Virus genome (UHGV): UHGV-0194661
Reading direction: 5' to 3' (one strand)
Length of the DNA stretch: 37,411 nucleotides
DNA from: a virus
A model generated the notes under the pieces. It worked only from the letters and a program-made list of their open reading frames with translations, did not search any database and was not told where the DNA came from. This document shows, one piece after another, positions 1,579 to 22,537 of the stretch (the first letter of the stretch is position 1; each line of letters begins with the position of its first letter). A program made the translations under genes and the position numbers.

Positions 1579-1615
1579 ATTAAGTTAAAGAGAAAATACA
1601 GGACTTGTCGTGCTG

Positions 1616-3050: not shown

Positions 3051-3051
3051 C

Positions 3052-3381: not shown

Positions 3382-3398
3382 GAAAGGAGGTATAAGCA

Positions 3399-3572: not shown

Positions 3573-3586
3573 AGAGGGTAAGACCA

Positions 3587-3901
3587 TTGGAACACTTTTT
3601 TTATCAGACTTATGTCACAGCATTACCAATCATTTTAACTGCGCTTATGGGTTATGTGGTTTGGATGTTAAAAAATCAGAAGAAGGATAGGGATGCGAAT
3701 AGTAAGGGCACAATGCTTTTGCTTAGAGTCCAGTTGATTGAATACCATGATAAGTATATGAGACTTGGCTCAATTCCATCCTACGCTTATGAGAATTTCT
3801 GTGAGATGTATAATGCATATCACAAACTCGGTGGCAACGGAATGATTACAAAAATGATGCACGAAATTGAAGAATTACACCTAAGAGAAAAAGGAGAATA
3901 A
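3587..3901 (+). CDS. Small membrane protein with one N-terminal TM segment; BhlA/UviB-like holin-like protein (tentative)
   Basis: TTG start 8 nt after GAGGG. Hydrophobic YVTALPIILTALMGYVVWML followed by a basic stretch. Sits at the head of the lysis cassette. Confidence 0.4.
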   Translation: MEHFFYQTYVTALPIILTALMGYVVWMLKNQKKDRDANSKGTMLLLRVQLIEYHDKYMRLGSIPSYAYENFCEMYNAYHKLGGNGMITKMMHEIEELHLREKGE

Positions 3902-3903
3902 TC

Positions 3904-4197
3904 ATGGAACAGATTATCAATTACATTAAACCGGAACTTATTGTTGTAGCTATTGTGCTGTACTTTATTGGTATGGCAGTGAAACAGAGCGAAACTATCG
4001 CAGACAAGTATATTCCTACTATCTTAGGAATTGCTGGAATTGTTATCTGCGGTATCTACGTGATTGCAACTTGCACTCTCGGAACAGGACAGGATATCGC
4101 AATGGCACTGTTTACCGCAATCGTACAAGGAATTTTAGTAGCCGGATTGAGTAATTATGTGAACCAGTTAATCAAGCAGAGTGGAAAAGAAGAGTAA
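3904..4197 (+). CDS. Phage holin (holin family 4_1 / LL-H-like), ~3 TM segments
   Basis: N-terminus MEQIINYIKPELIVVAIVLYFIGMAVK is typical of this holin family. Has multiple TM segments and sits immediately upstream of the endolysin. Confidence 0.65.
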   Translation: MEQIINYIKPELIVVAIVLYFIGMAVKQSETIADKYIPTILGIAGIVICGIYVIATCTLGTGQDIAMALFTAIVQGILVAGLSNYVNQLIKQSGKEE

Positions 4198-4199
4198 TT

Positions 4200-4376
4200 A
4201 TGACAGAGCAGACAGTAAAAGAAATTATTAAAAGTTTCGCTTATGGACTTTCAGCGAAAGAAATCTCAGACAATGAGGGAACATCACTGGAAACTATGCA
4301 GAAGTTCGCAGAGGAACATGCAGCGGAGATCGAACAGAAGAAGGTAGAACTGAAAGAAGGTGGATGGTATGAGTAA
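4200..4376 (+). CDS. Hypothetical 58-aa protein between holin and lysin; not in the ORF track
   Basis: ATG at 4200 three nt after the holin stop. Runs in frame to TAA at 4374..4376 and overlaps the lysin start. Confidence 0.35.
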   Translation: MTEQTVKEIIKSFAYGLSAKEISDNEGTSLETMQKFAEEHAAEIEQKKVELKEGGWYE

Positions 4377-5439
4377 ACTTATCATTGATGTCAGCTATCA
4401 CAATGGAGTCATCAACTGGGAAAGAGTCAAGGCGTCAGGATGCGCCGGAGCTATCCTTAGATGTGGATATGGAGATGATATCGCATCACAGGACGATAAG
4501 CAGTGGGTGAGAAACCTTGCAGAGTGTGAAAGACTTTGTATTCCGGTAGGAGTATATCTGTACAGCTATGCTACTTGTGACAGACAGGCACAGAGTGAAC
4601 TTGCTCATATCTTAAGACTGATTAAAGGTCATACATTTCAGTTACCTATCTTCATTGATGTGGAAGAGCCGGGGACACAGGGATATGCACCTAAATGCTG
4701 TGAGATTGTCTGTGAAGGACTTAAAGCGAATGGTTATACTCCGGGAATTTACGCATCCTTAAGCTGGTTCAATAACTATCTTGGCAGCGTGCGCGGAAAA
4801 TATGTCGAGTGGATGGCAAGATACAAGAATCTTCCGGAAGATACATACAATGGTCAGTATTCAATTTGGCAGTATTCTTCTGGCGGTCAGGTGGATGGAG
4901 TCAATGGAAGAGTTGATGTCAACCATTGCTATATGGACTTTGGTGGAAGTGCACAGCCTGTTACACCTTCTGCTAAGCCGGCACCAGCTGAAAAAAAAGA
5001 CTTAGGACAGGTCGATATCACATATCAGGCTTTCACAGATAAGTGGTGGCCAGCAGTGACAAATAAATCTGATTGGGCTGGCAAAGGTGACAACGTTCCG
5101 ATCAAGTGGCTTGCTATCAAAGTCAGCAAGGGAAGTATCCGCTGTCGAGTATACACAAGAAAGAGTGGCTGGCTGCCATACCTGACATTCGGAAACAGCT
5201 ATGATTTGAATGACAAAGTAAATGGAATCCTCGGAGACGGTTCAGAGATTCTTGCAGTAGAACTGTACTACATCACACCGGAAGGATATAAGTACAAGAT
5301 GGTTCACTACAGAGTTTCTGTACAGAACAATCCGAACTTCTACGCAGATCAGGTCGATACGCTGAAAGCAAGCGGTATGGACGGATATGCCGGAGACAAA
5401 TACAGATTCATTGACAAGTTCCAGGCATGGATTGAGTAA
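4360..5439 (+). CDS. Endolysin: GH25 muramidase catalytic domain plus C-terminal putative cell-wall-binding domain
   Basis: LIIDVSYHNGVINWERVKASGCAGAILRCGYG fits a GH25 N-terminus. A Pro/Ala linker (PVTPSAKPAPAEKK) precedes a ~180-aa C-terminal domain. The real start is more likely the ATG at 4369 (MSKLII), 5-6 nt after AAGGTGG. Confidence 0.75.
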   Translation: MDGMSKLIIDVSYHNGVINWERVKASGCAGAILRCGYGDDIASQDDKQWVRNLAECERLCIPVGVYLYSYATCDRQAQSELAHILRLIKGHTFQLPIFIDVEEPGTQGYAPKCCEIVCEGLKANGYTPGIYASLSWFNNYLGSVRGKYVEWMARYKNLPEDTYNGQYSIWQYSSGGQVDGVNGRVDVNHCYMDFGGSAQPVTPSAKPAPAEKKDLGQVDITYQAFTDKWWPAVTNKSDWAGKGDNVPIKWLAIKVSKGSIRCRVYTRKSGWLPYLTFGNSYDLNDKVNGILGDGSEILAVELYYITPEGYKYKMVHYRVSVQNNPNFYADQVDTLKASGMDGYAGDKYRFIDKFQAWIE

Positions 5440-5446
5440 AAAAGAT

Positions 5447-5471
5447 GCCCCGGAGCATTTGACTCTGGGGC
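5447..5471 (+). terminator. Weak hairpin after the endolysin
   Basis: gccccggag / ctctggggc stem with one mismatch and no T-run. Confidence 0.3.
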
Positions 5472-5626
5472 GTAAATATTGTATCATGTGAGGGGGCAAA
5501 AAGGGGGCAGAACATTGTACTTTGTTGTACGGTTTCAGTGCTGAAAATGCCTTAAAGTGCGATATTTCGCAGTAGTTTGTACCTATTTATATATACAGGT
5601 ACTCCCCTAGACAGCTTTGAAGCTTT

Positions 5627-5679
5627 CCCCGCAACCCCAGTATTTACTAGGAATTCTGAGGTTTGCGGGGTTCTTTTTT
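5627..5679 (+). terminator. Rho-independent terminator (ccccgcaa...ttgcgggg + T9)
   Basis: 8-bp GC-rich stem with a long loop, followed by ttcttttttg. Confidence 0.45.
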
Positions 5680-5706
5680 GTTCTCATGGGGCTTTCATGG
5701 GGCTCA

Positions 5707-5933
5707 CTATAAAATTTTTATTGCTTTTAATTGCTCGTTTCGTTTGCTTTCTAACTTCTGTGTGACGTGCAGATAAATTTCTTTTGTAATTTTGCTGTCA
5801 TTATGCCCAAGCCTTTTTGAGATGCTGTCGATATCAATTCCTTGTCCCATTAGCAGACTTGCATGTGTATGTCTTGGTGTGTGTGGCGTAATGCTTCTGC
5901 CGTAATGCTTCTGCCGATAGCAAGAAATCTCTC
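5707..5933 (-). pseudogene. C-terminal remnant of a tyrosine recombinase/integrase, disrupted by a 14-bp tandem duplication
   Basis: Minus-strand translation ...GRSITPHTPRHTHASLLMGQGIDIDSISKRLGHNDSKITKEIYLHVTQ...KAIKIL* carries the integrase box II (HxxR, catalytic Tyr in EIYLHV). Upstream the frame is broken at the duplicated gtaatgcttctgcc (5888..5901 and 5902..5915) and stops occur in all frames. No box I Arg region is present. Confidence 0.7.
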
Positions 5934-6065
5934 ACGAATATTACCCGGCGTTGAGCTTCGATACGATGGTTGACTGGCCTAGAATCTTCATAAATGATTT
6001 ACATGCTCCACAATTCCGATTATAAGTGGATTGCTTGACCGTTCCTGTTGACGCAGGGGCGTTAT

Positions 6066-6611
6066 TTATTTCAGCAGATTTGCAATACAGAGCTTAAGGT
6101 CATCATAGATTCCAACAGAAATCTCATCATCAAAAGAATATTGATTGGAGTCTTCTGTGTTACCAAAAAAGTAAGTCTGAACAGTCTGCGTCATTGGATT
6201 CACAATCCAGTATTCACGAACACCGGCTGTGCGGTATTTGAACAGCTTTGTAAGGTAATCCATACGCTGACTGCTTGGTGATACGATTTCAATAATGAAA
6301 TCTGGGGCACCATTGCATCCACGGTCATTAATCTTGCCTGGATCACAGATCACTGAGACATCTGGTTCTACATAGTTATGATTATCCTGATTCAGAAAAA
6401 CAGCAAATGGAGCAGGCAGAACTTCGCAAGGACCTCCGTGGGATTTAATATAATCCCGGATTGTTGCGGAAAGTTCCATTACAAGTTTCTGATGAAGATA
6501 ACTCGGTGGAGCCATGTCATAGATCTGACCGTCAATCAGTTCTGCACGCTGCCCATCAGGAAGAGCGTAGATGTCTTCAATTGTGTAGTTGTTTGATTTC
6601 GGTAATGGCAT
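6066..6611 (-). CDS. Uma2-family (DUF820, PD-(D/E)xK) endonuclease
   Basis: 181 aa. C-terminal ...DFIIEIVSPSSQRMDYLTKLFKYRTAGVREYWIVNP matches the Uma2 signature (EIxSPS...D...K..Y...GV.EYWIVdP). Confidence 0.65.
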   Translation of the reverse strand: MPLPKSNNYTIEDIYALPDGQRAELIDGQIYDMAPPSYLHQKLVMELSATIRDYIKSHGGPCEVLPAPFAVFLNQDNHNYVEPDVSVICDPGKINDRGCNGAPDFIIEIVSPSSQRMDYLTKLFKYRTAGVREYWIVNPMTQTVQTYFFGNTEDSNQYSFDDEISVGIYDDLKLCIANLLK

Positions 6612-6636
6612 GCAATCACGTCCTTTCTTAATTACT

Positions 6637-7983
6637 TTAAGGTTGATGTTCTTGTTTCATTTTTTGACTAATACGATATTGTTCCGCATCTGGAACATCA
6701 ATAAATTCAACTGTTTTATCAAAATTCTTCTTTACAACAGCTTTGATCTCATCAAGAGTAACATTGAAAAATTCTCTTCGAGTATTTACCATATTTAATT
6801 TTCTATCTTCAAAGGCTCTGTGCAAAGCGGTTTCAAGTGCTGGAGCATCATCGGAAAAAATCATAGCATGTACATCAAAATTGAATGGAACAGATGCGTC
6901 ACCCAACTCATCAACTCGATCCTGAGGATCTAATCGACGGGTCATTCCGATTTTATATACATTAGGACCAAAAGCACCAATATTAGAAATAACATATACA
7001 TATCCTGCACGCTGGTTAGCTTCTCTATAGTCAATATCTTTCATAGCTTTATCAATGTCATTTAATTGAGACTCCAGTTCCAGCTTCTTGTCAAGCAAGT
7101 CTTTATTTTCTGGATCTGACTGTAATTGGATGAGCAAATGCTCATATGCGGTCTGATAGTGAGTTTGTTCTTTTTCTATTTTCTTTCGTTGAGCTTCAAT
7201 TTCCTTTTGTAAACGAGCAGCTTCTCTTAATTCTGCACGAGCAGCTTTTTGAGCTTCTTTTTCTTCTTGTTTCTTTTGTTGATATTCAAAAGATAGTCTC
7301 AATTCTTTTACTTTTAGGTCTAAGTAAGCAGGTGTTATTGAGATATTCATAATTGTGCCCAATTTAGAAATTGTTTCAGCAGATTTATATATTTTATTAA
7401 GTGAGGCATCAAAATTAGTATACTTAACTTTCGAGATCAGCTCATCGCACTCAGTATTAAAAGCTCGCAAAAGCAACTTCTGAGTATCTGAAACCATTTT
7501 CTTTCCTTTGGCAGAACTTCCATTTACCTGCCATGTGGTAACTCCGGAGACTGCAAGTTTATTTTTTATCATATCTTTCTGTTTAGAACGAATTTTGGCA
7601 AGTTCTTCTTTATAATCAAGAGCATTAGCAAATTCATAGGTTGGTTTGTAAAGACCAAATTCTTGAACAAGAATTTCATCATCAAGAGTAACAATTTCTT
7701 TTTTCTTACAATTTATTTCTTGATTCAGTTTATCGATTTCTTTTTGCCTTTTAAGTCGCTCTTTTTCAATTTTTTCAGTTTCTTTTTGAAAGCTTTGATT
7801 CAAGTTTAATAATTCATCCTGTTTCTGCTGCATGTTATTATTTAATTCTCGAATTGTATCTTTCAGCATAAGAGCATTTTGCATTTCCGGGGTAAGCAGT
7901 TCTTGTAAGTCGTTATATTTTTGTTGCAATTCTGCTAATTCTGCTTTGTACTGATTTCCTTTGAATGTGTCTAAAAATCCCAT
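6637..7983 (-). CDS. DUF4041 coiled-coil protein with C-terminal T5orf172 (GIY-YIG-like) domain
   Basis: 448 aa. Long K/E/Q-rich coiled coil, then GYVYVISNIGAFGPNVYKIGMTRRLDPQDRVDELGDASVPFNFDVHAMIFSDDAPALETALHRAFEDRKLN typical of T5orf172/MUG113. Confidence 0.6.
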   Translation of the reverse strand: MGFLDTFKGNQYKAELAELQQKYNDLQELLTPEMQNALMLKDTIRELNNNMQQKQDELLNLNQSFQKETEKIEKERLKRQKEIDKLNQEINCKKKEIVTLDDEILVQEFGLYKPTYEFANALDYKEELAKIRSKQKDMIKNKLAVSGVTTWQVNGSSAKGKKMVSDTQKLLLRAFNTECDELISKVKYTNFDASLNKIYKSAETISKLGTIMNISITPAYLDLKVKELRLSFEYQQKKQEEKEAQKAARAELREAARLQKEIEAQRKKIEKEQTHYQTAYEHLLIQLQSDPENKDLLDKKLELESQLNDIDKAMKDIDYREANQRAGYVYVISNIGAFGPNVYKIGMTRRLDPQDRVDELGDASVPFNFDVHAMIFSDDAPALETALHRAFEDRKLNMVNTRREFFNVTLDEIKAVVKKNFDKTVEFIDVPDAEQYRISQKMKQEHQP

Positions 7984-8051
7984 TTTTTATCCTTCCCCCT
8001 TGTTCCTATGAGTACACCACAAACTCATATATAATCTCTTACGAGGTTATA

Positions 8052-8513
8052 TCACATCATTTCAACCACTACTAGATTCGGAATGAAGTATATAATATAG
8101 TTATCAACGGTAGTATATACTCCATACTTATCACGGTAGCAGCTGATACATTCTTCCAGATATTCTTCTGTAACATCTAGAAAATCTGCAATTTCATATT
8201 TGTTTTGACATCCAGCATTGAACGCGTGGATGATTCCAACAAGTCCGATCAGGCGGTTATAGCCATGTAATCGGGCTTGACGTTCCTGTTTCCGGTTCTC
8301 CAGTTTGGACTGATCTCGAATATCACCTGTGGAAGTATAGTAGTGTCCAAGTTCTTCAGCAAGAACATTGGCTTTTTGTCGTGACGTCTTAATATCATGC
8401 CGGATAGCAATTTTGTTTCCTTTTATTCTTCCATCTCCGCTTTGCAGTGGCTTTTCCTTTACCACTAATCCAATATTGCGAGCTTCGTCTAAAAGTATTT
8501 CATAAGAATTCAC
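8052..8513 (-). CDS. ImmA/IrrE-family metallopeptidase (anti-repressor protease) with variant EELGH motif
   Basis: 153 aa. VLAEELGHYY occupies the position of HExxH. Immediately downstream of an XRE repressor, as in ImmR/ImmA pairs. Confidence 0.55.
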   Translation of the reverse strand: MNSYEILLDEARNIGLVVKEKPLQSGDGRIKGNKIAIRHDIKTSRQKANVLAEELGHYYTSTGDIRDQSKLENRKQERQARLHGYNRLIGLVGIIHAFNAGCQNKYEIADFLDVTEEYLEECISCYRDKYGVYTTVDNYIIYFIPNLVVVEMM

Positions 8514-8574
8514 TTACAACACCTCCATCATAATTGTACTAAGCAATTTGTCCTTTAAAAGAGGACTATGGAGA

Positions 8575-9060
8575 TTAGAAGTTTTCGTCATCCATGATGT
8601 CATCATCATGTTGCCTCATTTCATCTGTGACTTCTATATCGGTACGTTCATGAGCTGCCTGGACGGCCAACTCTTCTTCCATTTGCTGGTTCACAAGCAG
8701 ATTTTTTGAATAGGTAAGGACTCTTTTCTGATTCGGAGAAGAGAGTTTTTCGTATATATTAAGTAGTTCTTTATGCTCTCCGTGAAATTTATACACATTA
8801 TTCTTAAATTTATCTGCTATTTCTTTCGGAGCTTCTTTTCCGGAGAAATTTGTATCCATCTGTTCCCAGCCCATTAAATATGCCGGAGATGTATCCAATG
8901 CCCTTGCGATTAATTCTATTTTATCAGAAGGAATATTGCCGATTACGCCACTTTCGTATCGTTGAATTGTTTGACGGCTTACACCAACACTTTTTGCTAA
9001 ATCTTCTAATGTCATTTTACGTTCAATTCGTTTACTTTTGATATTTTCTTTCAATCCCAT
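8575..9060 (-). CDS. XRE-family HTH repressor (cI/ImmR-like)
   Basis: N-terminal KRIERKMTLEDLAKSVGVSRQTIQRYESG is a classic Cro/C1 HTH. Divergently oriented to a Cro-like gene. Confidence 0.75.
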   Translation of the reverse strand: MGLKENIKSKRIERKMTLEDLAKSVGVSRQTIQRYESGVIGNIPSDKIELIARALDTSPAYLMGWEQMDTNFSGKEAPKEIADKFKNNVYKFHGEHKELLNIYEKLSSPNQKRVLTYSKNLLVNQQMEEELAVQAAHERTDIEVTDEMRQHDDDIMDDENF

Positions 9061-9094
9061 TTTTTCACCTCCAGTAACTAATTACTATATCTGT

Positions 9095-9122
9095 ATTATA
9101 ACATAAATTACGCAATATGCAA
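9095..9122 (-). promoter_or_regulatory. Putative repressor promoter (minus strand): -35 TTGCAT (revcomp of 9117..9122), 16-nt spacer, -10 TATAAT (revcomp of 9095..9100)
   Basis: Read directly from the sequence. Overlaps the TTACGCAATA repeat copy at 9108..9117. Confidence 0.4.
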
Positions 9123-9143
9123 CGAAAATAAACGAAAAAGCAC

Positions 9144-9172
9144 TTGACACGTTACAAAATAAGGTGTACTAT
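9144..9172 (+). promoter_or_regulatory. Putative early rightward promoter: -35 TTGACA (9144..9149), 17-nt spacer, -10 TACTAT (9167..9172); flanked by direct repeats AATTACGCAATATG (9105..9118) and AGTTACGCAATACG (9174..9187)
   Basis: Consensus -35 with 17-bp spacing. The two repeat copies lie 69 bp apart, bracketing the promoter, as operator sites would. Confidence 0.5.
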
Positions 9173-9208
9173 AAAGTTACGCAATACGTGACAAGAAAGG
9201 AGGATATC

Positions 9209-9415
9209 ATGATAGATAGAAATGAATTAAAGGGTGTTATTGCTAAAAATGGTACATCGCAGTCAGGTGTTGCAAAAGCTTTAGGAATTACGCCAAAAAC
9301 ATTCTATGACAAGATGAAAAAAGGAGTTTTTGATAGTGATGAAATAGAAATAATGATAGAAATATTACATATTGAAGACCCAATAAAAATTTTTTTTGTA
9401 AAAAATGTTACTTAA
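9209..9415 (+). CDS. Cro-like small HTH regulator (68 aa)
   Basis: AGGAGG at 9197..9202, then ATG at 9209. SQSGVAKALGITPKTFYDKMKKG is an HTH. Divergent from the repressor. The track ORF 9164..9415 is the same frame with a longer start. Confidence 0.6.
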   Translation: MIDRNELKGVIAKNGTSQSGVAKALGITPKTFYDKMKKGVFDSDEIEIMIEILHIEDPIKIFFVKNVT

Positions 9416-9442
9416 CACGTAACAAAAGAAGGGATCACAGAA

Positions 9443-10177
9443 ATGGACAATTTACAGATTACAGAGTACAAAAGCATTAGAGTGCTCACAACACAGCAGA
9501 TCGCTGAAGCGTATGGCTCTGACACAAGAGTTATTTCAAACAACTTCAATAGAAATAAGGAAAGATATATTGAAGGAAAACATTACATCTGCTTGGAAGA
9601 TGGTGAAAAGAGAGAGTTTGTTGACCATCATCAAATTGATGACGGTTCAAAGAAAGCATCGAAGCTTTATCTTTGGACGGAAAAAGGAGCTTTCCTTCAT
9701 GCGAAGTCACTTAACACTGACACGGCATGGGAAGTCTACGACAGACTGGTTGACAACTATTTTGAGAAACCAAAAGCAGTTCCAATGACAACCGACCAGA
9801 AGATTCAGTTACTTGCACAGGGTAATGTGGAACTAACAGAGAAAGTAAATTCCATTGATAAGGATTTACAGGAGTTCAAACAGGACATGCCGTTACTTGC
9901 CTTGGAGTGTCAGAGAATCACATGGGCAAAGAATAACAAGATTGTTCCACTGATGGGCGGAAAGAGTAGTCCAACGTATCGGGACAGGAGCTTGCGAACC
10001 AAAGTTTACAAAGACCTTGATAAACAGCTCAAAAGAGAATTCGGCGTTGACACATACAAGGCAATCAAGAGAAATCAGTGCAACCTGGCAGTAAAGATTA
10101 TCGAAGCGTACAAGCTCCCAATGTTTTTGAAAGAAGAGATTGACGCTGAAAATGCGCAGATGAGTTTTGAAGTGTAG
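9443..10177 (+). CDS. Antirepressor-like protein with ORF6N (KilA-N-like) and ORF6C domains
   Basis: N-terminal ITEYKSIRVLTTQQIAEAYGSDTRVISNNFNRNKERYIEGKHYI and C-terminal ...KNNKIVPLMGG...TYKAIKRNQCNLAVKIIEAY match the ORF6N/ORF6C architecture. Confidence 0.6.
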   Translation: MDNLQITEYKSIRVLTTQQIAEAYGSDTRVISNNFNRNKERYIEGKHYICLEDGEKREFVDHHQIDDGSKKASKLYLWTEKGAFLHAKSLNTDTAWEVYDRLVDNYFEKPKAVPMTTDQKIQLLAQGNVELTEKVNSIDKDLQEFKQDMPLLALECQRITWAKNNKIVPLMGGKSSPTYRDRSLRTKVYKDLDKQLKREFGVDTYKAIKRNQCNLAVKIIEAYKLPMFLKEEIDAENAQMSFEV

Positions 10178-10189
10178 GAGGGAATCAAG

Positions 10190-10441
10190 ATGAAAACTAA
10201 TATAAATCGAGAATACGCAGGAGAAAAAGAAGCTTTTGCTCCGCTTATTGGATTCAAGGTAGTAAGTGTGGAAGATGGACCCACTAATGGTGATTTTGGA
10301 GACATAACTGTTCTTACATTGGTAAATGAACATCATGTAGCTATTGATGTAACTATTTCGGATGAAGCTATTTGGATCAGTGAGCCACACGCAGTTAAGG
10401 ATGATTTAAGTGCTATCAGTGATGAGGACGCAAAAGTGTAA
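10190..10441 (+). CDS. Small hypothetical protein (paralog A)
   Basis: 83 aa. Shares the pattern L.GFKV..V..G...G.....L...N..VA.D..I.D....S with the next ORF. Confidence 0.5.
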   Translation: MKTNINREYAGEKEAFAPLIGFKVVSVEDGPTNGDFGDITVLTLVNEHHVAIDVTISDEAIWISEPHAVKDDLSAISDEDAKV

Positions 10442-10500
10442 GAAATGTGGTTGGGTTCCAGCGATTGAGTAGGTGGCGTGAGGGGTACTGATGAAGAGAG

Positions 10501-10749
10501 GTGAAAGCAATGAAGAAAAAGATTATCAATAAGAGAGTCAATGGAGATTCTGAAGAGTTGCACGCACTGAAAGGCTTTAAGGTCTTAGCTGTTGGCAACG
10601 GAACAATCGGAGAAGAGTGTGCGTTGAGAATAATGCTGATGAACAAGAACAACGTTGCTGTTGATTTAAGTATCACAGATGACGGAGCGTACCTCAGCGA
10701 TTTCTACGCACTGACAGAGGACATGATTCCACGCACTTATGAGGATTAG
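10501..10749 (+). CDS. Small hypothetical protein (paralog B)
   Basis: 82 aa, RBS GAGAGGTGAAAG upstream. Paralogous to 10190..10441. Confidence 0.5.
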   Translation: MKAMKKKIINKRVNGDSEELHALKGFKVLAVGNGTIGEECALRIMLMNKNNVAVDLSITDDGAYLSDFYALTEDMIPRTYED

Positions 10750-10762
10750 AGAGGTGAGGACG

Positions 10763-11137
10763 ATGCTAACAAGAGCACAGGCTGTTGCAGAGCTAGAACG
10801 CATCTATGAAATCCTTCCGCAGATTGCATCGGTACTGGAAGAAGAGAAGAAACCAATTCCACAGTACGCAAAGACATCGTACTTCAAGGATGTGTATGGT
10901 CAATCAATGGGAACGGTTAAGAATCGGAAGTACGGAATTATGAATCAGATCAAGCTTGGTCGGTATCCAAAAGATGCGATCATGGACCGATTTATTGACA
11001 AGGCTGTGTACGCAGACTACAACCGATTCTTCAGAGCACTGGAAGGTGCAACAAGAAAGTATGTTCCTGAGTATAATCCAATCGAATCGATGATATTGGT
11101 ACGGAAGATGGAAGGTGAGACAGATGCGGAACTGTAA
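10763..11137 (+). CDS. Hypothetical phage protein
   Basis: The ORF is 10739..11137. The likely start is ATG 10763 after GAGAGGTGAGG. Confidence 0.5.
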   Translation: MLTRAQAVAELERIYEILPQIASVLEEEKKPIPQYAKTSYFKDVYGQSMGTVKNRKYGIMNQIKLGRYPKDAIMDRFIDKAVYADYNRFFRALEGATRKYVPEYNPIESMILVRKMEGETDAEL

Positions 11138-11495
11138 GGAATGCAGAAGAAAGAACCACTGCATGGAGATGAGTAGATTCATTCCATGTACATCTTATAA
11201 GAAAGGAGTGAGAAAGAGTGAATCAGTTAGATGTAATCAACATTCAGAGAAAAGCAATTCAGACAGTTCAGATAATTGACATTCAGGGACAGCCGAAGAG
11301 GAGCAAGTGCGATGACAGAGAAGAAACCATGCCAGCAATCATGACAGTGGTCGCAATGGGAGCTGTGATATTTCTTGGAATTGCAACTTGGGTAATCTTC
11401 GGATACTAAAAAAGAGTGCCATAGAAAAGGCGGCAACCTTCTGGCACTCGGAAATTAGTCAATTACATTATAAGAAAAGAAAGGAAATTAGTCAA

Positions 11496-11711
11496 ATGAT
11501 TAAAGCAACAAAAATAAAAACAAACGATAAAGATGGTTATCAGGTAGAAGCAAGTGGAAGTATTGGTGATCTTATGATGGAGTATAAAGCAATAACGGAA
11601 GCTCTCTTCAAAACGGTCAGTAGAGAGGCTGGATTAGGACTCGCAGAGGAACTCTTTATGAAAGCAATAAGAATGACAATTGAGGGAGAGAAGAATGAAC
11701 GATCCGTTTGA
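11496..11711 (+). CDS. Small hypothetical protein
   Basis: Internal ATG of ORF 11388..11711 with an AAAGGAAA-type RBS. Start uncertain. Confidence 0.3.
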   Translation: MIKATKIKTNDKDGYQVEASGSIGDLMMEYKAITEALFKTVSREAGLGLAEELFMKAIRMTIEGEKNERSV

Positions 11712-12354
11712 AGTATTTGATTTTAAGGACGAAAAGGACTGGTTAAGTGGAAGAATGAACGGCATCGGTGGAAGCGATGCGAGCTCAGTGGTCGGGATGA
11801 ATCCTTACAAGAGCAACATCGATCTGTTTGAAGAGAAGACTGGGAGAAGAATTCCAGAAGATATTTCTGGAAAAGCCTGTGTGATCTATGGAAAATACGC
11901 AGAAGGACCAATCCGGGAATTGTTTAAACTGGACTATCCGGAATATAAAGTAGAGCATCATGAGTTCAGAATCTTGCGAAGTATTGAGCATCCATTTATG
12001 CAGGCTTCACTTGATGGAGAGCTAACAGATCAGGATGGAAGAAAAGGAATCTTGGAAATAAAAACAACTAACATTTTGCAGAGTATGCAGAAAGAGAAGT
12101 GGAGAGATCGTGTTCCGGATAATTATTACATACAGGTTTTACATTATCTTCTTGTCACAGGTTATGAATTTATTGAACTGTGTGCACATCTAAGAACTGA
12201 TTGGGGCGGAGAGAAACGGACAACAGTAAAACATTACCATATAGAGCGGGCAGAAGTTCAGAATGATCTGGATATGCTGCTTAGAGAAGAAACGAAGTTT
12301 TGGAATTATGTAGAGAGTGGCAGGAAGCCACCGCTCATACTTCCAGAGATATAA
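11695..12354 (+). CDS. YqaJ-type (lambda-exonuclease-like) recombination exonuclease
   Basis: GIGGSDASSVVGMNPYKSNIDLFEEKTG is the YqaJ N-terminal signature. ATG 11695 after GGGAGAG. Sits upstream of DUF1351 and RecT. Confidence 0.7.
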   Translation: MNDPFEVFDFKDEKDWLSGRMNGIGGSDASSVVGMNPYKSNIDLFEEKTGRRIPEDISGKACVIYGKYAEGPIRELFKLDYPEYKVEHHEFRILRSIEHPFMQASLDGELTDQDGRKGILEIKTTNILQSMQKEKWRDRVPDNYYIQVLHYLLVTGYEFIELCAHLRTDWGGEKRTTVKHYHIERAEVQNDLDMLLREETKFWNYVESGRKPPLILPEI

Positions 12355-12371
12355 ATACAAGGAGGAACAAA

Positions 12372-13247
12372 ATGGAATTAAGAATTACTAATCCGGAAGA
12401 AAATGGATTTTTGAAAGAGATCCAGTGGAACCAAGAGGAAGTCAAATCATGGGTTGCTGCAAGAGTGCAGGATTATAAGACGATCGCATATACTGCAGAT
12501 CAGGCGAAAGACATGAAGAGAGATCGTGCAGATCTTAATAAGTTAAAAGCTGCATTCGAAGACGAGAGAAAGCGTCTGAAGAAAGTGTGTATGGAACCGT
12601 ATAACCGGTTTGAACAGCAGGTGAAAGAAATCACAGCACTGATTGATGAACCAATTCAGTTAATTGATTCTCAGCTGTCTGAAATCGAAGAGAGACGCAA
12701 GCAGCTGAAACAGAAAGAGATAGAAGAACTTTTTGAAACGATCGGATTTCAGGACTTCATTACGCTGGAAAGAATCATGGATCCGAAGTGGCTGAATGCA
12801 ACGGTATCTCTTAACAAGATTGAAGAGCAGATGAAGAACTTGCTGTTTAGAGTCGGTACAGAAGTTTCTACGATCAATAGTCTTCCGGAGTTTAGCTTTG
12901 AAGCACTGGAGAATTACAAGAAGACGCTTGACTTAAATATGGCCATTGCAGAAGGACAGAGACTTGCAGACATTCAGAAGCGGAAACAGCAGTATGAAGA
13001 AGAACAGAAACGTATTGCTGAAGAAAAAGCAAGACAGGAAGCAGAAGAACTTACAGCTAAGCAGCAGGAAGGTGATGAGACAGTCAAAGAAGCTACACCG
13101 GTTAATGAGACTGTTATTGTAAGAGAAGAGCCAGTTGCTGCAGACCTGATCCAGTTAGACTTCCGTGTATTCGGAACAAGAGAGCAGATCATGGCATTAC
13201 GTAACTATATGATTGAGAATCAGATTAAATTTGGAAAGGTGGAATAA
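12372..13247 (+). CDS. DUF1351-like phage protein (RecT-associated)
   Basis: AGGAGG then ATG 12372. Coiled-coil-rich protein sitting between YqaJ and RecT. Confidence 0.5.
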   Translation: MELRITNPEENGFLKEIQWNQEEVKSWVAARVQDYKTIAYTADQAKDMKRDRADLNKLKAAFEDERKRLKKVCMEPYNRFEQQVKEITALIDEPIQLIDSQLSEIEERRKQLKQKEIEELFETIGFQDFITLERIMDPKWLNATVSLNKIEEQMKNLLFRVGTEVSTINSLPEFSFEALENYKKTLDLNMAIAEGQRLADIQKRKQQYEEEQKRIAEEKARQEAEELTAKQQEGDETVKEATPVNETVIVREEPVAADLIQLDFRVFGTREQIMALRNYMIENQIKFGKVE

Positions 13248-13250
13248 AAG

Positions 13251-14165
13251 ATGGCAGTACAGAACAGTTTAGCAAACAGACAGACGAAAACAGGAATGGC
13301 TGCATACCTGACGCAGGATGCAGTAAAGAAACAGATCAACAGTGTGGTTGGTGGAAAGAATGGGACAAGATTCATTTCCAGTATCGTATCAGCAGTTCAG
13401 ACAACACCGGCTCTGCAGGAGTGTACAAATCCAAGCATCCTGTCAGCAGCATTACTTGGTGAGGCACTGAACCTTTCACCATCTCCGCAGCTTGGTCAGT
13501 TCTATATGGTCCCTTTCGACAATAAGAAGAAAGGATGCAAGGAAGCACAGTTTCAGCTTGGATATAAGGGATACATTCAGTTGGCAGAGCGTTCTGGATA
13601 TTATAAGAAACTGAATGTTCTTGCAATCAAGGAAGGCGAACTGATCCGTTATGATCCTCTGAATGAAGAGATAGAGGTGGAATTGATCGATGATGATGTG
13701 ATTCGTGAAGAAGCACCTGCTATGGGATATTATGCTATGTTTGAGTATGAGAATGGGTTCCGTAAGACCATGTACTGGTCCAAGAAGAAAATGCTTGCAC
13801 ATGCGGAGAAGTATTCCCAGGCATTTAAGAGAAATGGTGGAGCAAAGTCCTTGGAGCTTCTGGAACAGGGGAAGATTCCAGAAAAGGAACTTTGGAAATA
13901 TTCTTCCTTCTGGTTTAAAGATTTTGATGGAATGGCATTGAAGACGATGCTCCGTCAGCTGATCAGCAAATGGGGAATCATGAGTATTGATCTTCAGACA
14001 GCACTTGATAAGGACATGGCAGTCATCCATGAAGATGGAACAACAGATTATGTTGATACTCAGCTAGAGCAGGACAATATTGTTGCAGATCAGGAGCTGC
14101 AGGAGGTAAAAGAGAACAAAAAGGAACAGCCGACAGGAAATATTGAAGAGGAGTTCTTCCAGTAG
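13251..14165 (+). CDS. recT: RecT-family single-strand annealing recombinase
   Basis: ...TTPALQECTNPSILSAALLGEALNLSPSPQLGQFYMVPF... is typical of the RecT core. Confidence 0.7.
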   Translation: MAVQNSLANRQTKTGMAAYLTQDAVKKQINSVVGGKNGTRFISSIVSAVQTTPALQECTNPSILSAALLGEALNLSPSPQLGQFYMVPFDNKKKGCKEAQFQLGYKGYIQLAERSGYYKKLNVLAIKEGELIRYDPLNEEIEVELIDDDVIREEAPAMGYYAMFEYENGFRKTMYWSKKKMLAHAEKYSQAFKRNGGAKSLELLEQGKIPEKELWKYSSFWFKDFDGMALKTMLRQLISKWGIMSIDLQTALDKDMAVIHEDGTTDYVDTQLEQDNIVADQELQEVKENKKEQPTGNIEEEFFQ

Positions 14166-14225
14166 AAAATAGTTATCTCCTTATAAATTGAACATATGTC
14201 ACACACGCAACTTATAAACAATGTT

Positions 14226-17590: not shown

Positions 17591-17977
17591 ATGAACAGAC
17601 AAGAACAAGAGGATAAAGCGCAGCTTGAGTACCTGAGAAAGTGGAAAGAGAAGAAAAAGAAGAGAAAGAATGACAGAAGACAAACAATAAAATTGTGCGA
17701 AAAAAAAGCGCGTAAGAATGGGTGCCCAGAATGTTGTGAACAGTGTGATCTGAATACCAGAGGCGGATATAGATATGAGGCAAGAAATCTGATTAGAGAA
17801 CAGGGCAAGCAGATATTGCATGAGGATGTAGCAGAGTATATCGCAAGAAAATTAGGGATTAAGAGTGGAGGCGATACCGTTGGAGATGAGACTGGAAGAG
17901 AACAATGTGAAGAACGAGAACAACCGGAAAAAAGAGTATCTGAGAGGATACAGAGCCAACAGAAGACGAATCAGTAG
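17591..17977 (+). CDS. Basic hypothetical protein with Cys cluster (CPECCEQC)
   Basis: 128-aa ORF. Its 3' end overlaps the next gene in another frame. Confidence 0.3.
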   Translation: MNRQEQEDKAQLEYLRKWKEKKKKRKNDRRQTIKLCEKKARKNGCPECCEQCDLNTRGGYRYEARNLIREQGKQILHEDVAEYIARKLGIKSGGDTVGDETGREQCEEREQPEKRVSERIQSQQKTNQ

Positions 17978-18329
17978 AATTGACGATGAGGTAAGAGAGC
18001 TCAGGGAACTTGCAGAATCTACGAAAGCAACAGACTATTCGGGGATGCCTCATGGAAGTGGGAATCAGAAAGATTTGTCAGATGAACTGGCAAGAATAGA
18101 TTCACTGGAGAAAAAACTTGAGATAGAAAAGAGCAAATGTATCGAATCGTATATATCCATTGAGAATCAGATTAAGACAGTGAAGAATGAAGATGAGAAC
18201 GATGTACTGTTTTACAGATACATTAAGGGATTGCGTTTTTGGGAAATCGCTGAAAAGATGGATTGTACAGAACAGTGGGTTCATAAGTTGCATGGGAGAG
18301 CATTAGGACGTTTAAAAATACCAAAATAA
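17865..18329 (+). CDS. Sigma-70 region-4-like late transcriptional activator (DUF1492/ArpU/RinA-like)
   Basis: N-terminal KKEYLRGYRANRRRISRIDDEVRELRE and C-terminal LFYRYIKGLRFWEIAEKMDCTEQWVHKLHGRALGRLK (sigma region 4 HTH). Positioned before the packaging module. Start may be ATG 17886. Confidence 0.6.
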   Translation: MEAIPLEMRLEENNVKNENNRKKEYLRGYRANRRRISRIDDEVRELRELAESTKATDYSGMPHGSGNQKDLSDELARIDSLEKKLEIEKSKCIESYISIENQIKTVKNEDENDVLFYRYIKGLRFWEIAEKMDCTEQWVHKLHGRALGRLKIPK

Positions 18330-18529
18330 TTTATTATAGTTTATTGAAGTTTAGTATAGATATGTGAGAGAATTACAATGAGCCTGAGGCGGAAAGCTGA
18401 TGGCTCGTCCTCTCTTTGTATAAAACCCAAGAAGCACCTGCATGATAATGTGTGGGTGTTTTTCTGTTGTATAATGTCGAGATTTGGGATATTATGGAAG
18501 TAGGTTCTTATACGTATGGAGGGATAGTT

Positions 18530-19429
18530 ATGGAACGTAATATAAAATATCAGTATTTTAAAATGGATTCTCAAATAAAGTTAAATGGAAATTGGGTAGA
18601 TGAAGGAGCATTTGATTTTATTGGTTGGATAGATTATATTAATAAAAATGCATTGGAACAAGAAACAATTAAGTTGAAAGATACAAAGGCACGTATAGAG
18701 AAAATAGAGTTTTTTAATAAGGCTAATATATGGATTGTTCGATTTATGAAATTAAGAGAAGAAAATTTACCGTATTTAGCAAAAGAAAAATATGATGCAG
18801 AAGATATTCCTTTACAGCCGGATGAATATATTGGCGAAGATATGTATATGCTTTATGATATTGATAATCAAATAGCAATGATACAATCTAACCGTTTTTC
18901 ACTTGGTATCAATAGACTAGGAGAATTTTTAATTAAATCCCAAAAGGAAAATGATAAAAGAGTGAGACTATGGCCTATAAGGGATAATATAGATGTGACA
19001 TCATTAAAGAAAATTGAATATAGAACGATAGAATTGGGCTTTGCTAATATTGTGAATGTAGTGAATACAGGAAAAAGTTCGTTAACTGATATTTTAAATA
19101 CATATAGGAAATTTTCAGGAGTTTCTGGTACTATAAAAATTGGTATAGGTCGATCAAAGGATGGAGCATTGGATGCTATAGAAGTAGATAAGTTAATAGC
19201 GGATATTAAAAGATGTGAGAATATTACCAGTGCAAAAGTGAAAATTAGAGATGACGATCTGGCAAGAATAGAGGTTATTGATCTTTTAGATGAAAATGTA
19301 TCAGATATAATAACTTATAAATTAGAGCCTAGGGAATCACTTTCATTTGATGTAGCAACATCATATATGATAGAGAGATATCAGAGAAGAAAAGATAAAA
19401 TTTTAAATTTGATAACAAGGTCAGAGTAA
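18530..19429 (+). CDS. AT-rich cassette gene 1: soluble 299-aa protein of unknown function
   Basis: GGAGGG RBS then ATG 18530. The track ORF starts at 18452. GC content about 30%, against ~45% for the surrounding genome. Confidence 0.6.
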   Translation: MERNIKYQYFKMDSQIKLNGNWVDEGAFDFIGWIDYINKNALEQETIKLKDTKARIEKIEFFNKANIWIVRFMKLREENLPYLAKEKYDAEDIPLQPDEYIGEDMYMLYDIDNQIAMIQSNRFSLGINRLGEFLIKSQKENDKRVRLWPIRDNIDVTSLKKIEYRTIELGFANIVNVVNTGKSSLTDILNTYRKFSGVSGTIKIGIGRSKDGALDAIEVDKLIADIKRCENITSAKVKIRDDDLARIEVIDLLDENVSDIITYKLEPRESLSFDVATSYMIERYQRRKDKILNLITRSE

Positions 19430-19446
19430 AACGAAAGGAGAATAAC

Positions 19447-19971
19447 ATGAAATATTATTTGGAACGAAGTTACCCGTATGGTATAGCTATTATTACAACT
19501 GTTATTCTCCAAAGAGTAGCAATGGGGGTAATGGGAAATGAAAATTTTGATGATTTATTAGGAGGGTTGGTGACATTTGATTCAATTGTTATTGGATTTT
19601 TTGGTGCAATAATGCCGGTCATTTTAAGTATGAAAAATGAGTCCAAATTTGTTAAATATGTTTTTGAGAATGATACGAAACAATTATTTTCAAAATATTT
19701 AAAAGTTACAATTTTTTCTGGACTATGTAGTGCGGTACTATCATTGGCATTATATATAAGAGATTCATTTGTACATTCTTTTGTTAAAAATGGACTATAT
19801 ATAGCTTGGATCTTTGGAACGACACTTTTTTTGACATCTACTTATAGAAGTTTATCGCATATGATTACATTAGTTTTTTCTAAAGATAATTTTATCGATG
19901 TTAAGAAAAAGGAAGTAAGGAAGAAAGAAGAAAAAGAACTTGAATTAGAAAAAAACTACAGTAAGAGATGA
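19447..19971 (+). CDS. AT-rich cassette gene 2: 4-TM membrane protein with K/E-rich C-terminal tail
   Basis: Four hydrophobic segments. AGGAG RBS. Confidence 0.6.
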   Translation: MKYYLERSYPYGIAIITTVILQRVAMGVMGNENFDDLLGGLVTFDSIVIGFFGAIMPVILSMKNESKFVKYVFENDTKQLFSKYLKVTIFSGLCSAVLSLALYIRDSFVHSFVKNGLYIAWIFGTTLFLTSTYRSLSHMITLVFSKDNFIDVKKKEVRKKEEKELELEKNYSKR

Positions 19972-20059
19972 GGTTTTTTGTTGAAATATGCCGAGAAAAG
20001 GAATATAGTAAAATTGTGGTGAAATAAAGGAAGTGGTTCTCACAGAATAGGAGGACAAG

Positions 20060-20557
20060 ATGTCATTTTGGGCAATATTTAATGGGTTGATAGTTGTAGG
20101 TTTAGCGTTTGCTGCATTACCTGGAATAAAGTCTGGAAAAAAGACTATTTTAGCGCAAGTTTATGACGGTAAGCAACATATGGTGTCGGTTATAAAAAAT
20201 GATAAAGGAGAATTTCAACCTACAGACGAAGAAAACAAGTATATAACTGAAAGAGTAAAGATTATAATTAAAGAAAAATTGCATTATATTATTGGTTTCG
20301 CAATGTCTGCAATAGGAACGTTTGGAACTTTATGGACGGGAAATAATGATATGCCTTTGATTATTTGTGAAAGAAGACGGAAATTATTGTTATCGATTAT
20401 CATGTGGTTGATAGTAGCCTATTTTTTGAGTTGGATATTAGAAAAATATCTATTTAAAACAATCACTAAGAATTACAGTTTGGAAAAGGATATATTAGTC
20501 GATGGAGATATTTTTATGCAAGATATCGAAATCAATATGGAAGATGAAAATAAATAA
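20060..20557 (+). CDS. AT-rich cassette gene 3: 3-TM membrane protein
   Basis: Three hydrophobic segments. GGAGGA RBS. Confidence 0.6.
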   Translation: MSFWAIFNGLIVVGLAFAALPGIKSGKKTILAQVYDGKQHMVSVIKNDKGEFQPTDEENKYITERVKIIIKEKLHYIIGFAMSAIGTFGTLWTGNNDMPLIICERRRKLLLSIIMWLIVAYFLSWILEKYLFKTITKNYSLEKDILVDGDIFMQDIEINMEDENK

Positions 20558-20566
20558 TTAAATAAT

Positions 20567-20587
20567 GGCACCCTCCGGGGTGCTTTT
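20567..20587 (+). terminator. Rho-independent terminator (ggcaccc-tccg-gggtgc-tttt)
   Basis: 6-bp GC stem followed by a T-run, directly after the cassette. Confidence 0.65.
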
Positions 20588-20603
20588 CTAATATCCGAAA
20601 CCC

Positions 20604-20675
20604 GGACCATTAGTTCAGTGGTAGAACATTCGCCTCATAAGCGATATGTCGTAGGTTCGATCCCTACATGGTCCA
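20604..20675 (+). tRNA. tRNA with CAU anticodon (Met; could alternatively be tRNA-Ile2 by lysidine modification)
   Basis: 7-bp acceptor stem GGACCAT/ATGGTCC, D-arm AGTTCAGTGGTAGAAC, anticodon loop CTCATAA, T-arm GTAGGTTCGATCCCTAC, discriminator A. No encoded CCA. Confidence 0.7.
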
Positions 20676-20691
20676 TCAATAATAAACAGGA

Positions 20692-21201
20692 ATGGAAGGT
20701 GGTGAAGTGGCAGGTTATGAAAACATAAGAGATGCGAATGACAATCGAACTCCGGAGGAACGCCGGGAATTAGCAAAAACAGCAGGGAAAGCAAGTGGTC
20801 GGGCGAGACGTAGGAAGGCAGACTTCCGGAAGACGTTGAACCTGCTGCTTACTGCGGAAATAGATAATGAAGAATGGAAGCCGGTTTTAGAGTCGCTTGG
20901 TGTTGAGTGTACTTTGGAATCGGCTTTGCTTATGGCTCAGATCAAGGAGGCAATGCAGGGAAATACAAAGGCTGCATATTTTGTTGCCCAGTATGCTGGA
21001 CAGAATGCACAGACTGCTGCGGATGATAAAGAACAGCAACGCAGGACAGAACGGATGGAGGCGGATACAGAAAAGATCCGCAGAAGCTCTGGAAATGCTG
21101 AGAATGAGGATGAAGGAGTAGAGATTATAAATGATGCGCCAGAAGAAACAAGTCAGGATATCGGATATAGTGATTCCGAAGTACCTGCCGATATTCAATA
21201 A
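20692..21201 (+). CDS. Putative terminase small subunit
   Basis: 169-aa basic/acidic protein immediately upstream of and overlapping TerL. The call rests on position only. Alternative start GTG 20707. Confidence 0.45.
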   Translation: MEGGEVAGYENIRDANDNRTPEERRELAKTAGKASGRARRRKADFRKTLNLLLTAEIDNEEWKPVLESLGVECTLESALLMAQIKEAMQGNTKAAYFVAQYAGQNAQTAADDKEQQRRTERMEADTEKIRRSSGNAENEDEGVEIINDAPEETSQDIGYSDSEVPADIQ

Positions 21202-22537
21202 CCGAAGTATCAAGCATATCATCCTGACATCTGGTCGTGCCGGGACGAAATCCAGTTATGCAGCTATCAGGTCAGATTATCAACTTGTATCAGATGCCAA
21301 TGGCTCTGTGGTTGTGCTGCGTAAGCATCATAACAAGCTGCGGAAAACAGTTTACAAGGAGATGCTCCGAGGAATCAACCGTTTGGAGATTCCGAAAAGT
21401 AAGTTCCGGATTACAAAGTCTCCAATGGAGATCACTTATAAGAAGTATGGAACAACGATGTATTTTGCCGGATCAGATGGCATTGATGATACGAAAGGTA
21501 TTATTGATGAGGATAAACCGATCAAGTTGGTTGTGCTAGATGAGTTGACAGAATTCTTTGATGACGGTGATGGTGAGGATGAGTTAAGTAATATCGAAGC
21601 TACTTTCGTTCGTGGAAATAAAGGTGGTTTCCAAATGATTTATCTGTATAACCCGCCAAAGAATCCGAATGCACCGATTAATCAGTGGTGCAAGAAGATG
21701 GAAAAACGTCCTGACTGCGTACATATCCATACGGACTACAGAGATGTACCTGCTGCCTGGCTAGGCCCTGATCTGATTGCTTCTGCCAAGGCAATGGAGG
21801 TTGCTGATCCGAAAATGTACAGATGGGTTTGGCTTGGAGAATCAGTAGGAGTAGATGAACTGATTTATTACATGTTCGGAGAAAGGCACAGACAGAAACC
21901 GGATCCAGATAGAAGATATGACAGAATCTACATTGGCGGTGATTATGGTCAGCAGAATGCAACAACATTTCAGGCATTTGGTCTTGATACTTACAGGAAA
22001 AAGTTTCCGGGATTAGGAGAGTATTATCATAGTGGGCGAGAGACAGGGAAGCAGAAAAGTCCGTCTGAGTATGCACAGGATCTTGTTGAGTTCATGGATG
22101 AATTACATGAACAATATGATAACCGACTCTTTTATATTTTCCTGGATCCATCAGCAAAAGGATTGGCAGAAGAAATAAAGAGAGCAACCAGGAAAAGTGT
22201 GGACTATCAGGTGTTTCTTCGTGATGCAGAGAATGATGTAGCATTAGGCATTAGCCGTGTACAAAAGGTTTTGGTATTTGACATTATGTCTATTGCTCCA
22301 AAGCAAGAAAATGCAGTAAATGAGTTCGGGGTATATGAATACGATAAGAAATCAATTGAAAAAGGGAAAGAAGTTCCTGTAAAAGAGAATGATCACTGTA
22401 TGGATGCGATTCGTTATGCAGTGATGGGAGCATGGAGCAAGATGAAATACTGGTTGCCATCAGATGATTTGACAAAGGAGATTGATATTTGCGATTTCGG
22501 CAGCAGGGAGGTGAGAGAAGACGATGAATATATTTAA
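21131..22537 (+). CDS. Terminase large subunit (PBSX/XtmB-like family)
   Basis: Walker A ILTSGRAGTKSS, about 470 aa, nuclease C-terminal half with acidic motifs. Confidence 0.75.
   Translation: MMRQKKQVRISDIVIPKYLPIFNNRSIKHIILTSGRAGTKSSYAAIRSDYQLVSDANGSVVVLRKHHNKLRKTVYKEMLRGINRLEIPKSKFRITKSPMEITYKKYGTTMYFAGSDGIDDTKGIIDEDKPIKLVVLDELTEFFDDGDGEDELSNIEATFVRGNKGGFQMIYLYNPPKNPNAPINQWCKKMEKRPDCVHIHTDYRDVPAAWLGPDLIASAKAMEVADPKMYRWVWLGESVGVDELIYYMFGERHRQKPDPDRRYDRIYIGGDYGQQNATTFQAFGLDTYRKKFPGLGEYYHSGRETGKQKSPSEYAQDLVEFMDELHEQYDNRLFYIFLDPSAKGLAEEIKRATRKSVDYQVFLRDAENDVALGISRVQKVLVFDIMSIAPKQENAVNEFGVYEYDKKSIEKGKEVPVKENDHCMDAIRYAVMGAWSKMKYWLPSDDLTKEIDICDFGSREVREDDEYI

Follow-up and report, generated by a model that had tools for sequence, protein, structure and literature searches.

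What do the three genes of an AT-rich island in the virus genome UHGV-0194661 encode, and do they belong together? The stretch analysed here (the window) comprises 37,411 nucleotides (nt), and the island lies between a gene for a late-type transcriptional regulator and a tRNA gene. A reading made from the letters alone (the sequence-only reading) had described a cassette of one soluble and two membrane proteins, here called A, B and C, and had taken it for the best candidate in the window for an undescribed phage-borne defence or exclusion system. Our analysis divides the island into two units, the pair A-B and an independent moron, C. The pair is probably a RexAB-type abortive-infection module, of a branch not described so far.

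Most of the proposed layout was borne out (Table 1). In a sliding profile with 300-nt windows the content of guanine and cytosine (GC) falls to 0.26–0.33 across about 18300–20550, compared to 0.40–0.48 in both flanks and about 0.42 for the entire window. The trough is filled by three open reading frames (ORFs) on the plus strand, which are those of A, B and C. The terminator claimed at the end of the island was found as a hairpin followed by a T-run, and the tRNA(CAU) behind it is a tRNA-Met(CAT). Of the two proteins predicted to span the membrane several times, B shows four long helices in its model, while C, for which three transmembrane (TM) segments had been counted, has two strong hydrophobic peaks and a weak one.

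To delimit the system we relied on its recurrence elsewhere. A search for homologues of A returned 49 clusters, all of them DUF6731 proteins, and alignment-based scans of genome and viral contig collections (IMG/VR contigs and prophage-like genome regions) yielded 66 loci with A, all ORFs of which were searched with A, B and C. In 56 of these 66 loci a homologue of B lies directly 3′ of the A homologue. Where A is intact, the distance between the two genes ranges from −95 to +23 nt, and overlaps of 4 nt are frequent. Eight more distant A loci have no detectable B homologue, yet they carry a non-homologous ORF of 156–179 amino acids (aa) with three to four hydrophobic segments at the same position. 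The only A loci without any such membrane ORF are truncated contigs and one locus with a fragmentary A. Furthermore, the pairwise identities of A and of B correlate across loci (r = 0.79).

Gene C behaves differently. No homologue of C was found in the 66 A loci, and outside this phage lineage C co-occurs with A-B nowhere, so that the trio was never found together elsewhere while the pair A-B recurs. Only four clusters of C homologues exist among 5.8 billion proteins. In the relatives L068–L076, C stands alone between a small regulator gene and the terminase genes (terS, small terminase). A cluster 67% identical to C (P0140; L068–L073) is present on 76 contigs, always in the same slot, and the terminase/portal sets that follow it are of at least three different kinds. 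Because it occupies one slot before such different sets, C is itself a mobile single-gene moron, and it has its own conserved promoter-like element. The protein is laid out as an N-terminal TM segment, a polar segment of about 50 aa and one or two further TM segments, with hydropathy peaks at residues 14, 83 and 118. Scans against Pfam, PHROG, PADLOC and NCBIfam gave no informative family match for C, and a role in superinfection exclusion at the membrane is a guess.

Close relatives of the window phage show that A-B is a discrete insertion. L074–L076 have 84–96% nucleotide identity to it in the flanks, and they carry C and lack A-B. Positions 1650–2365 of L074 align to 17773–18492 of the window, and positions 2333–3426 to 19974–21062. 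Because this alignment flanks A-B on both sides, the pair is a 1,514-bp insertion relative to L074–L076. The 33 nt from 2333 to 2365 of L074 align to both junctions (18460–18492 and 19974–20006 of the window), and A-B is therefore bordered by an imperfect direct repeat. Within the repeat lies a promoter-like element, which reads TTGTAT-17-TATTAT ahead of A and TTGAAA-17-TATAGT ahead of C. The element before C (TTGAAA-17-TATAGT or TATTAT) is kept in the window, L074, L068 and L069. The −10 sequence that had been suggested at 18470 was sustained in part: TATAAT is present at 18470–18475, where it overlaps the −35-like part of the conserved element at 18467–18495, and with no acceptable −35 of its own it is not supported as a −10 sequence. 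Over the AT-rich stretch as a whole, promoter-like matches are not above chance (18 found versus 15.6 expected).

The surroundings of the insertion are shared with L074, which lacks A-B: it also has the weak hairpin at 18430–18463, and its alignment runs through the region of the tRNA-Met(CAT) gene. A megablast search of GenBank with positions 17800–21300 found no near-identical phages. An inverted repeat of 19 nt (79% complementary, 18476–18494 and 20589–20607) brackets the whole A-B-C island. It was judged to be a chance occurrence, as 11 comparable pairs exist in 2.4 kb of this AT-rich DNA.

The pair has the character of a moron throughout the collected loci. Fifty loci have flanks long enough for a comparison, and in every one the GC content of A-B is lower than that of its flanks (means 0.31 versus 0.41), with host flanks ranging from 0.31 to 0.52. 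Of 49 loci, 30 have a terminator-like hairpin at most 130 nt from the B stop codon, compared to 2% of control windows drawn from within A-B. Upstream of A, 24 of the 49 carry a sigma-70 match of 10/12 or better versus 11% of controls, and in five loci it is a perfect TTGACA-N16-18-TATAAT. In the window, the terminator at 20567 is common to A-B and C. Presence or absence among relatives, the deviant composition and the promoters and terminators of its own at many loci fit the definition of a moron, and the insertion at the junction of regulator and packaging genes that the sequence-only reading had proposed holds for A-B, a mobile unit absent from close relatives.

The genomic contexts of A-B are diverse. 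Genes for terS, the large terminase (TerL) or the portal protein follow directly downstream on the same strand in 27 of 51 non-redundant loci, and these terminases are of several unrelated types. In 17 of the 51, a homologue of the window's regulator (about 154 aa) precedes A-B by about 260 nt. At other sites A-B is accompanied by endolysins, holins, serine recombinases, integrases, Cro/CI repressors, DNA methylases and RhuM. Clostridium phage phiCp-A has the pair between an endolysin and a resolvase/repressor, and the second gene of this pair resembles B weakly (expectation value (E) 4e-4). Carriage on a plasmid was seen in a single match, from Niallia. A-B behaves as an autonomous unit that moves horizontally between unrelated phages and chromosomal islands.

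In Streptococcus phage Javan1 a DUF6731 gene (Javan1_0027) lies 5′ of terS and is followed by an unannotated membrane ORF. This polytopic 165-aa ORF, between Javan1_0027 and terS, covers 5787–6284 of L080, about 17660–18157 of MK448665.1, and is probably a missed gene call for a B-type partner. In about ten loci (L001, L023, L039, L042/L043, L049–L051, L057) a tRNA gene was also observed soon after A-B; its anticodon varies (Met, Arg, Lys, Trp, Thr). tRNAs as well as morons accumulate in the slot between late regulator and terminase.

Protein A had been thought to match no family. It matches Pfam DUF6731 (PF20505) over its full length (residues 2–287 of 299, E 3e-58), with 198 bits against a cut-off of 27, and it also matches phrog_10865. 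All 148 sampled relatives of A match DUF6731 as well. A profile search of 1.84 billion representatives gave 1,447 clusters (50% identity) for this family at E ≤ 1e-3 and 775 at E ≤ 1e-10. Its members come almost entirely from Bacillota phages and prophages, many of them from gut and rumen (Lachnospiraceae, Clostridia, Bacilli, Listeria, Streptococcus), and every named organism in our genome-contig scan belongs to the Bacillota. One DUF6731 protein (P0019, on a contig of 105 kb) is labelled 'methyltransferase (DUF6731) [Popillia japonica]', a beetle; this entry most likely represents bacterial or phage DNA in an insect assembly under a misleading product name. The literature search found no publication on DUF6731 or PF20505.

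The likeness of A to RexA of phage lambda is seen in its structural model. The model contains seven strands in residues 2–120, an insert of four strands and helices at 143–241, and a C-terminal helix of 23 residues. RexA consists of a split globular domain with a seven-stranded sheet, an interrupting dimerisation domain with four strands and as many helices, and a terminal long kinked helix, alpha-8; RdgC, IML3 and CHL4 were named as its structural relatives (Adams et al. 2024, PMC11077077). RexA is the best structural neighbour of A, with an identity of 14% in the structural comparison, and ranks 2–5 are taken by CHL4, IML3, CENP-N and RdgC with scores far below that of RexA. All three relatives named for RexA are therefore in the list for A. 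On the basis of the model, we regard it as firm that A has a two-domain fold of the RexA/RdgC type, closest to lambda RexA.

The comparison of sequence profiles points in the same direction as the number of sequences grows. Single-sequence alignment of A and RexA by hhalign was not significant (E 0.083). A deeper profile of 148 DUF6731 sequences against lambda RexA alone was not significant either (E 0.0095), and only against a four-sequence RexA profile built from lambda and three other enterobacterial phages did it reach E 4.7e-5, with 201 colinear columns. In this alignment residues 70–298 of A are colinear with 54–273 of RexA. Both families share the invariant motif L-x-x-D-E-x-(I/L)-G, with L95, D98, E99, I101 and G102 in A and L82, D85, E86, L88 and G89 in RexA. 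A is a probable remote homologue of RexA.

For B, an AlphaFold2 (AF2) model with a predicted local distance difference test (pLDDT) value of 81 has long helices at residues 2–24, 34–61, 80–103 and 111–149, a short helix at 67–75 and a charged C-terminal tail. Lysine and arginine residues number two in the N-terminus, none in loop 1 (which has three acidic residues), five in loop 2, one in loop 3 and 11 in the C-terminal tail. Because of this distribution, both termini and the loop between TM2 and TM3 are predicted to be cytoplasmic. Most invariant residues of B are found in TM2 and in the TM2-TM3 loop (G53-A54-x-x-P57-V58 ... M62-K-N64-x-S66-K67 ... Y71-x-F73 ... D76 ... L80-F81). A cytosolic component with a membrane partner, as known from abortive-infection and exclusion systems, thus survives from the sequence-only reading for A and B; C is not part of it.

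Considering these results together, we propose that A and B make up a two-component module of the RexAB type for abortive infection (phage exclusion), which a temperate phage carries as a self-contained moron; we give this a probability of about 0.6. That the carrier is temperate follows from the Cro/CI repressor and ImmA/IrrE protease encoded in the window, and it is a Bacillota phage, probably of gut Lachnospiraceae. In RexAB-type systems the RexA-like protein is a dimer that binds DNA non-specifically, and the exclusion of other phages, by membrane depolarisation or growth arrest upon infection, requires both partners. The mechanism is modelled on lambda, Sbash, CarolAnn and the Pseudomonas putida pair. 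A would be a dimeric switch that senses DNA or a phage protein. Upon infection by another phage, A would engage the cytoplasmic loop of B, and B would open as a channel or pore, leading to a collapse of membrane potential and ATP. Growth of the infected cell would stop and development of the invader would be aborted.

Several observations weigh against this proposal. Foldseek against the PDB did not return RexA among the top 50, CENP-N and CHL4 being first at E of about 0.015, and 8TWQ (RexA) was absent from the results when the A profile was run against PDB sequences. A has no match to Pfam RexA (PF15969) or DUF4747 at E ≤ 1, a single one of the 148 DUF6731 members matches Pfam RexA (E 0.018), and the probability of 68% that hhalign assigns to the alignment with the four-sequence profile is suggestive, not conclusive. 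For B, hhalign gave E 0.038 with lambda RexB and E 0.21 with a four-sequence RexB profile, and Foldseek against viral models (BFVD) did not return lambda RexB. Because there is no sequence similarity to RexB, B is an analogue of RexB, no homologue being demonstrable, and four-helix membrane proteins are a generic shape. Foldseek did pair the B model with a 165-aa Sbash protein that may be gp31, a weak match that is not significant (template modelling score 0.45, E 0.89). PADLOC had no match for A, B or C, and NCBIfam nothing significant for any of them. Unlike the lambda genes, most copies of A-B, including that of the window, lie away from the immunity repressor; exceptions are phiCp-A and some few loci that have neighbours of the Cro/CI type. 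Over the loci as a whole, the surroundings of A-B are enriched in sigma-70-like promoters and terminators belonging to the pair. In the window the promoter before A is weak, with a poor −35 of 3/6. Read in the opposite direction, the identity of only 14%, the failure of Foldseek to find RexA, the lack of relation between B and RexB and the silence of PADLOC would fit a RexA likeness that arose by convergence of folds or as an artefact of modelling, with an unrelated function such as transport or lysis timing. Beside the colinear profile alignment and the motif shared by both families, we consider this improbable.

Other explanations accept the pair and assign its parts differently. The Rex-like pair gp30/gp31 of mycobacteriophage Butters works by a reversed logic (PMC12894663), and A could accordingly be a toxic or antiviral effector which B holds at the membrane until infection. 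The linkage and co-variation of A and B and the conserved cytoplasmic loop of B fit this just as well. However, the membrane protein is the effector in four of the five Rex-like systems described (PMC12894663), and the constraint on the loop and TM2 of B is no weaker than that on A, as would fit an active effector; we think reversed logic unlikely. A might instead serve the carrier itself as a RexA/RdgC-like DNA-binding protein, in the lysis-lysogeny switch, in recombination or at the start of packaging, with B as an anchor or accessory. Very close relatives manage without A-B, though, and the pair also occurs at the lysis/integrase junction and in chromosomal islands. In each of 50 loci its composition is foreign, it is usually insulated by its own promoter and terminator, and a function purely at the DNA level leaves an obligate membrane partner unexplained. 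We think a main role of this kind for the carrier unlikely. The single three-gene system of the sequence-only reading has in its favour that A, B and C are adjacent on the same strand, have the low GC content in common and share the terminator at 20567. It is very improbable, since C is missing from all 66 A-carrying loci and stands alone in L068–L076, and since L074–L076 keep C without the 1,514-bp A-B segment, C having its own copy of the slot promoter. A RexAB-type exclusion module formed by A and B alone remains the reading we prefer.

Table 1. Position of predicted genes and signals in the window.
Feature	Position	Strand	Basis or remark
GH25 muramidase (endolysin)	4360–5439		upstream of the lysogeny block
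Uma2-family putative endonuclease	6066–6611	−	
DUF4041 + T5orf172/MUG113 protein	6637–7983	−	GC about 0.33
ImmA/IrrE-like metalloprotease	8052–8513	−	
Cro/CI repressor	8575–9060	−	
Late-type transcriptional regulator (sigma-70 region 4 / DUF1492 / phrog_36)	17865–18329	+	context, outside the A-B system
Weak terminator-like hairpin with T-run, 3′ of the regulator gene	18430–18463	+	left edge of the accessory slot
Imperfect direct repeat (about 33 nt) bounding A-B, left copy	18460–18492	+	L074 alignment
Promoter-like TTGTAT-17-TATTAT before A	18467–18495	+	predicted; read from sequence, aligned with relatives
Gene A, 299-aa cytosolic DUF6731 protein with RexA-like two-domain fold	18530–19429	+	proposed sensor/activator
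Gene B, 174-aa four-helix inner-membrane protein	19447–19971	+	proposed membrane effector (RexB analogue)
Direct repeat bounding A-B, right copy	19974–20006	+	L074 alignment
Promoter-like TTGAAA-17-TATAGT before C	19981–20009	+	10/12 consensus, best of the region; kept in L074
Gene C, 165-aa independent membrane protein	20060–20557	+	
Intrinsic-terminator-like hairpin (7 pairs, 5 of them G-C) with T-run	20567–20584	+	closes the accessory slot
tRNA-Met(CAT)	20604–20675	+	ARAGORN; context only

As listed in Table 1, A starts with the ATG at 18530, which is preceded by a GGAGG ribosome-binding site. For a longer version starting with GTG at 18452, the N-termini of homologues give no support. On the 3′ side of the island follow the probable small terminase, which matches phrog_2412, and a large terminase (TerL) of the Terminase_3 type.

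Further accessory elements were observed elsewhere in the window. A diversity-generating retroelement occupies 7–3050, with a variable repeat (VR) at 1422–1519, a template repeat (TR) at 1616–1713 and a reverse transcriptase gene at 1896–3050. The 98-nt VR forms the 3′ end of a 504-aa ORF (7–1521), and the second copy lies 194 nt downstream with 82% identity; all 18 mismatches between VR and TR fall on adenines of this second copy, the template repeat. The reverse transcriptase gene has a sub-threshold RVT_1 match (E 3.4e-5). An accessory block on the minus strand (6066–9060) belongs to the lysogeny side. Its Uma2 and DUF4041 genes sit where lambda carries rexAB, and may likewise serve the prophage as accessory or defence genes. 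No integrase was recognised among the ten proteins scanned in positions 1–14200; other ORFs of that region were outside the scan.

If the proposed function of A-B is true, a large uncharacterised family of about 1,450 clusters gains a function that can be tested, and Rex-type abortive infection would be a widespread prophage-encoded defence in Gram-positive bacteria, reaching their gut phages as well. Current models for finding defence systems miss A-B, as seen with PADLOC. How RexA communicates with RexB is a long-open question, on which the comparative set bears through the conserved cytoplasmic loop of B and the DE-x-(I/L)-G motif of A. Lambda, P. putida, the bulk of the DUF6731 loci and the distant DUF6731 loci each have a membrane partner that is not homologous to the others, so that one sensor fold may repeatedly have recruited different channels. 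Speculatively, DUF6731 with its four-TM partner might be the main Gram-positive form of a broad and ancient class, in which a DNA clamp of the RexA/RdgC fold is combined with interchangeable small membrane effectors. The strong preference for the slot just upstream of terS/TerL (27 of 51 loci) could then mean that the sensor is adapted to intermediates of packaging or replication, such as concatemer ends, or that it doubles as a regulator of late development in the carrier phage itself. This wider view is doubtful at present.

As of January 2026, RexAB-like systems had been described only from lambda, Sbash, CarolAnn, Butters and P. putida prophage P1, none of them from Bacillota (PMC12894663), and our literature search for "RexA-like" returned known systems only. 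The lambda pair RexA/RexB (PF15969 / RexB; PDB 8TWQ) has enterobacterial hosts, whereas A-B is found in Bacillota. The rexAB genes lie in the lambda immunity region and are expressed in the lysogen together with the repressor cI from the promoter PRM. A-B prefers the slot between regulator and terminase, in which it lies here and at about half of the loci, and at many loci it has a promoter and a terminator of its own. Proteins of the RdgC / CHL4-IML3-CENP-N fold group differ from A-B in having neither a membrane partner nor a phage context.

The pairs gp30/gp31 of Sbash and gp44/gp43 of CarolAnn are similar in arrangement. Like A-B, they are prophage-encoded and consist of a RexA-like and a four-TM protein, and the Sbash genes are displaced from the repressor, as is A-B in the window. 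Sbash gp31 spans the membrane with four helices and has both termini in the cytoplasm; in its conserved central loop, R70A and D73A each abolish defence (PMC6426596). B likewise has its invariant residues concentrated in the central (TM2-TM3) loop predicted to be cytoplasmic. No sequence relation was detected between A-B and the Sbash and CarolAnn proteins, and the DUF4747 motif reported for the Sbash and lambda proteins has no match in A. For RexABpp of P. putida prophage P1 (PP_5643/PP_5644), membrane damage that is triggered by A and depends on B was shown, and RexBpp is a four-helix bundle with no detectable homology to RexB (PMC12894663). RexABpp was assigned on the same grounds as A-B here, namely RexA as the best structural neighbour and a four-TM partner without RexB homology. 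A-B is best read neither as the undescribed kind of system that the sequence-only reading had expected nor as a categorically new mechanism, but as a new, large and sequence-divergent branch of the RexAB type, which differs from the known members in its partner family and its preferred slot.

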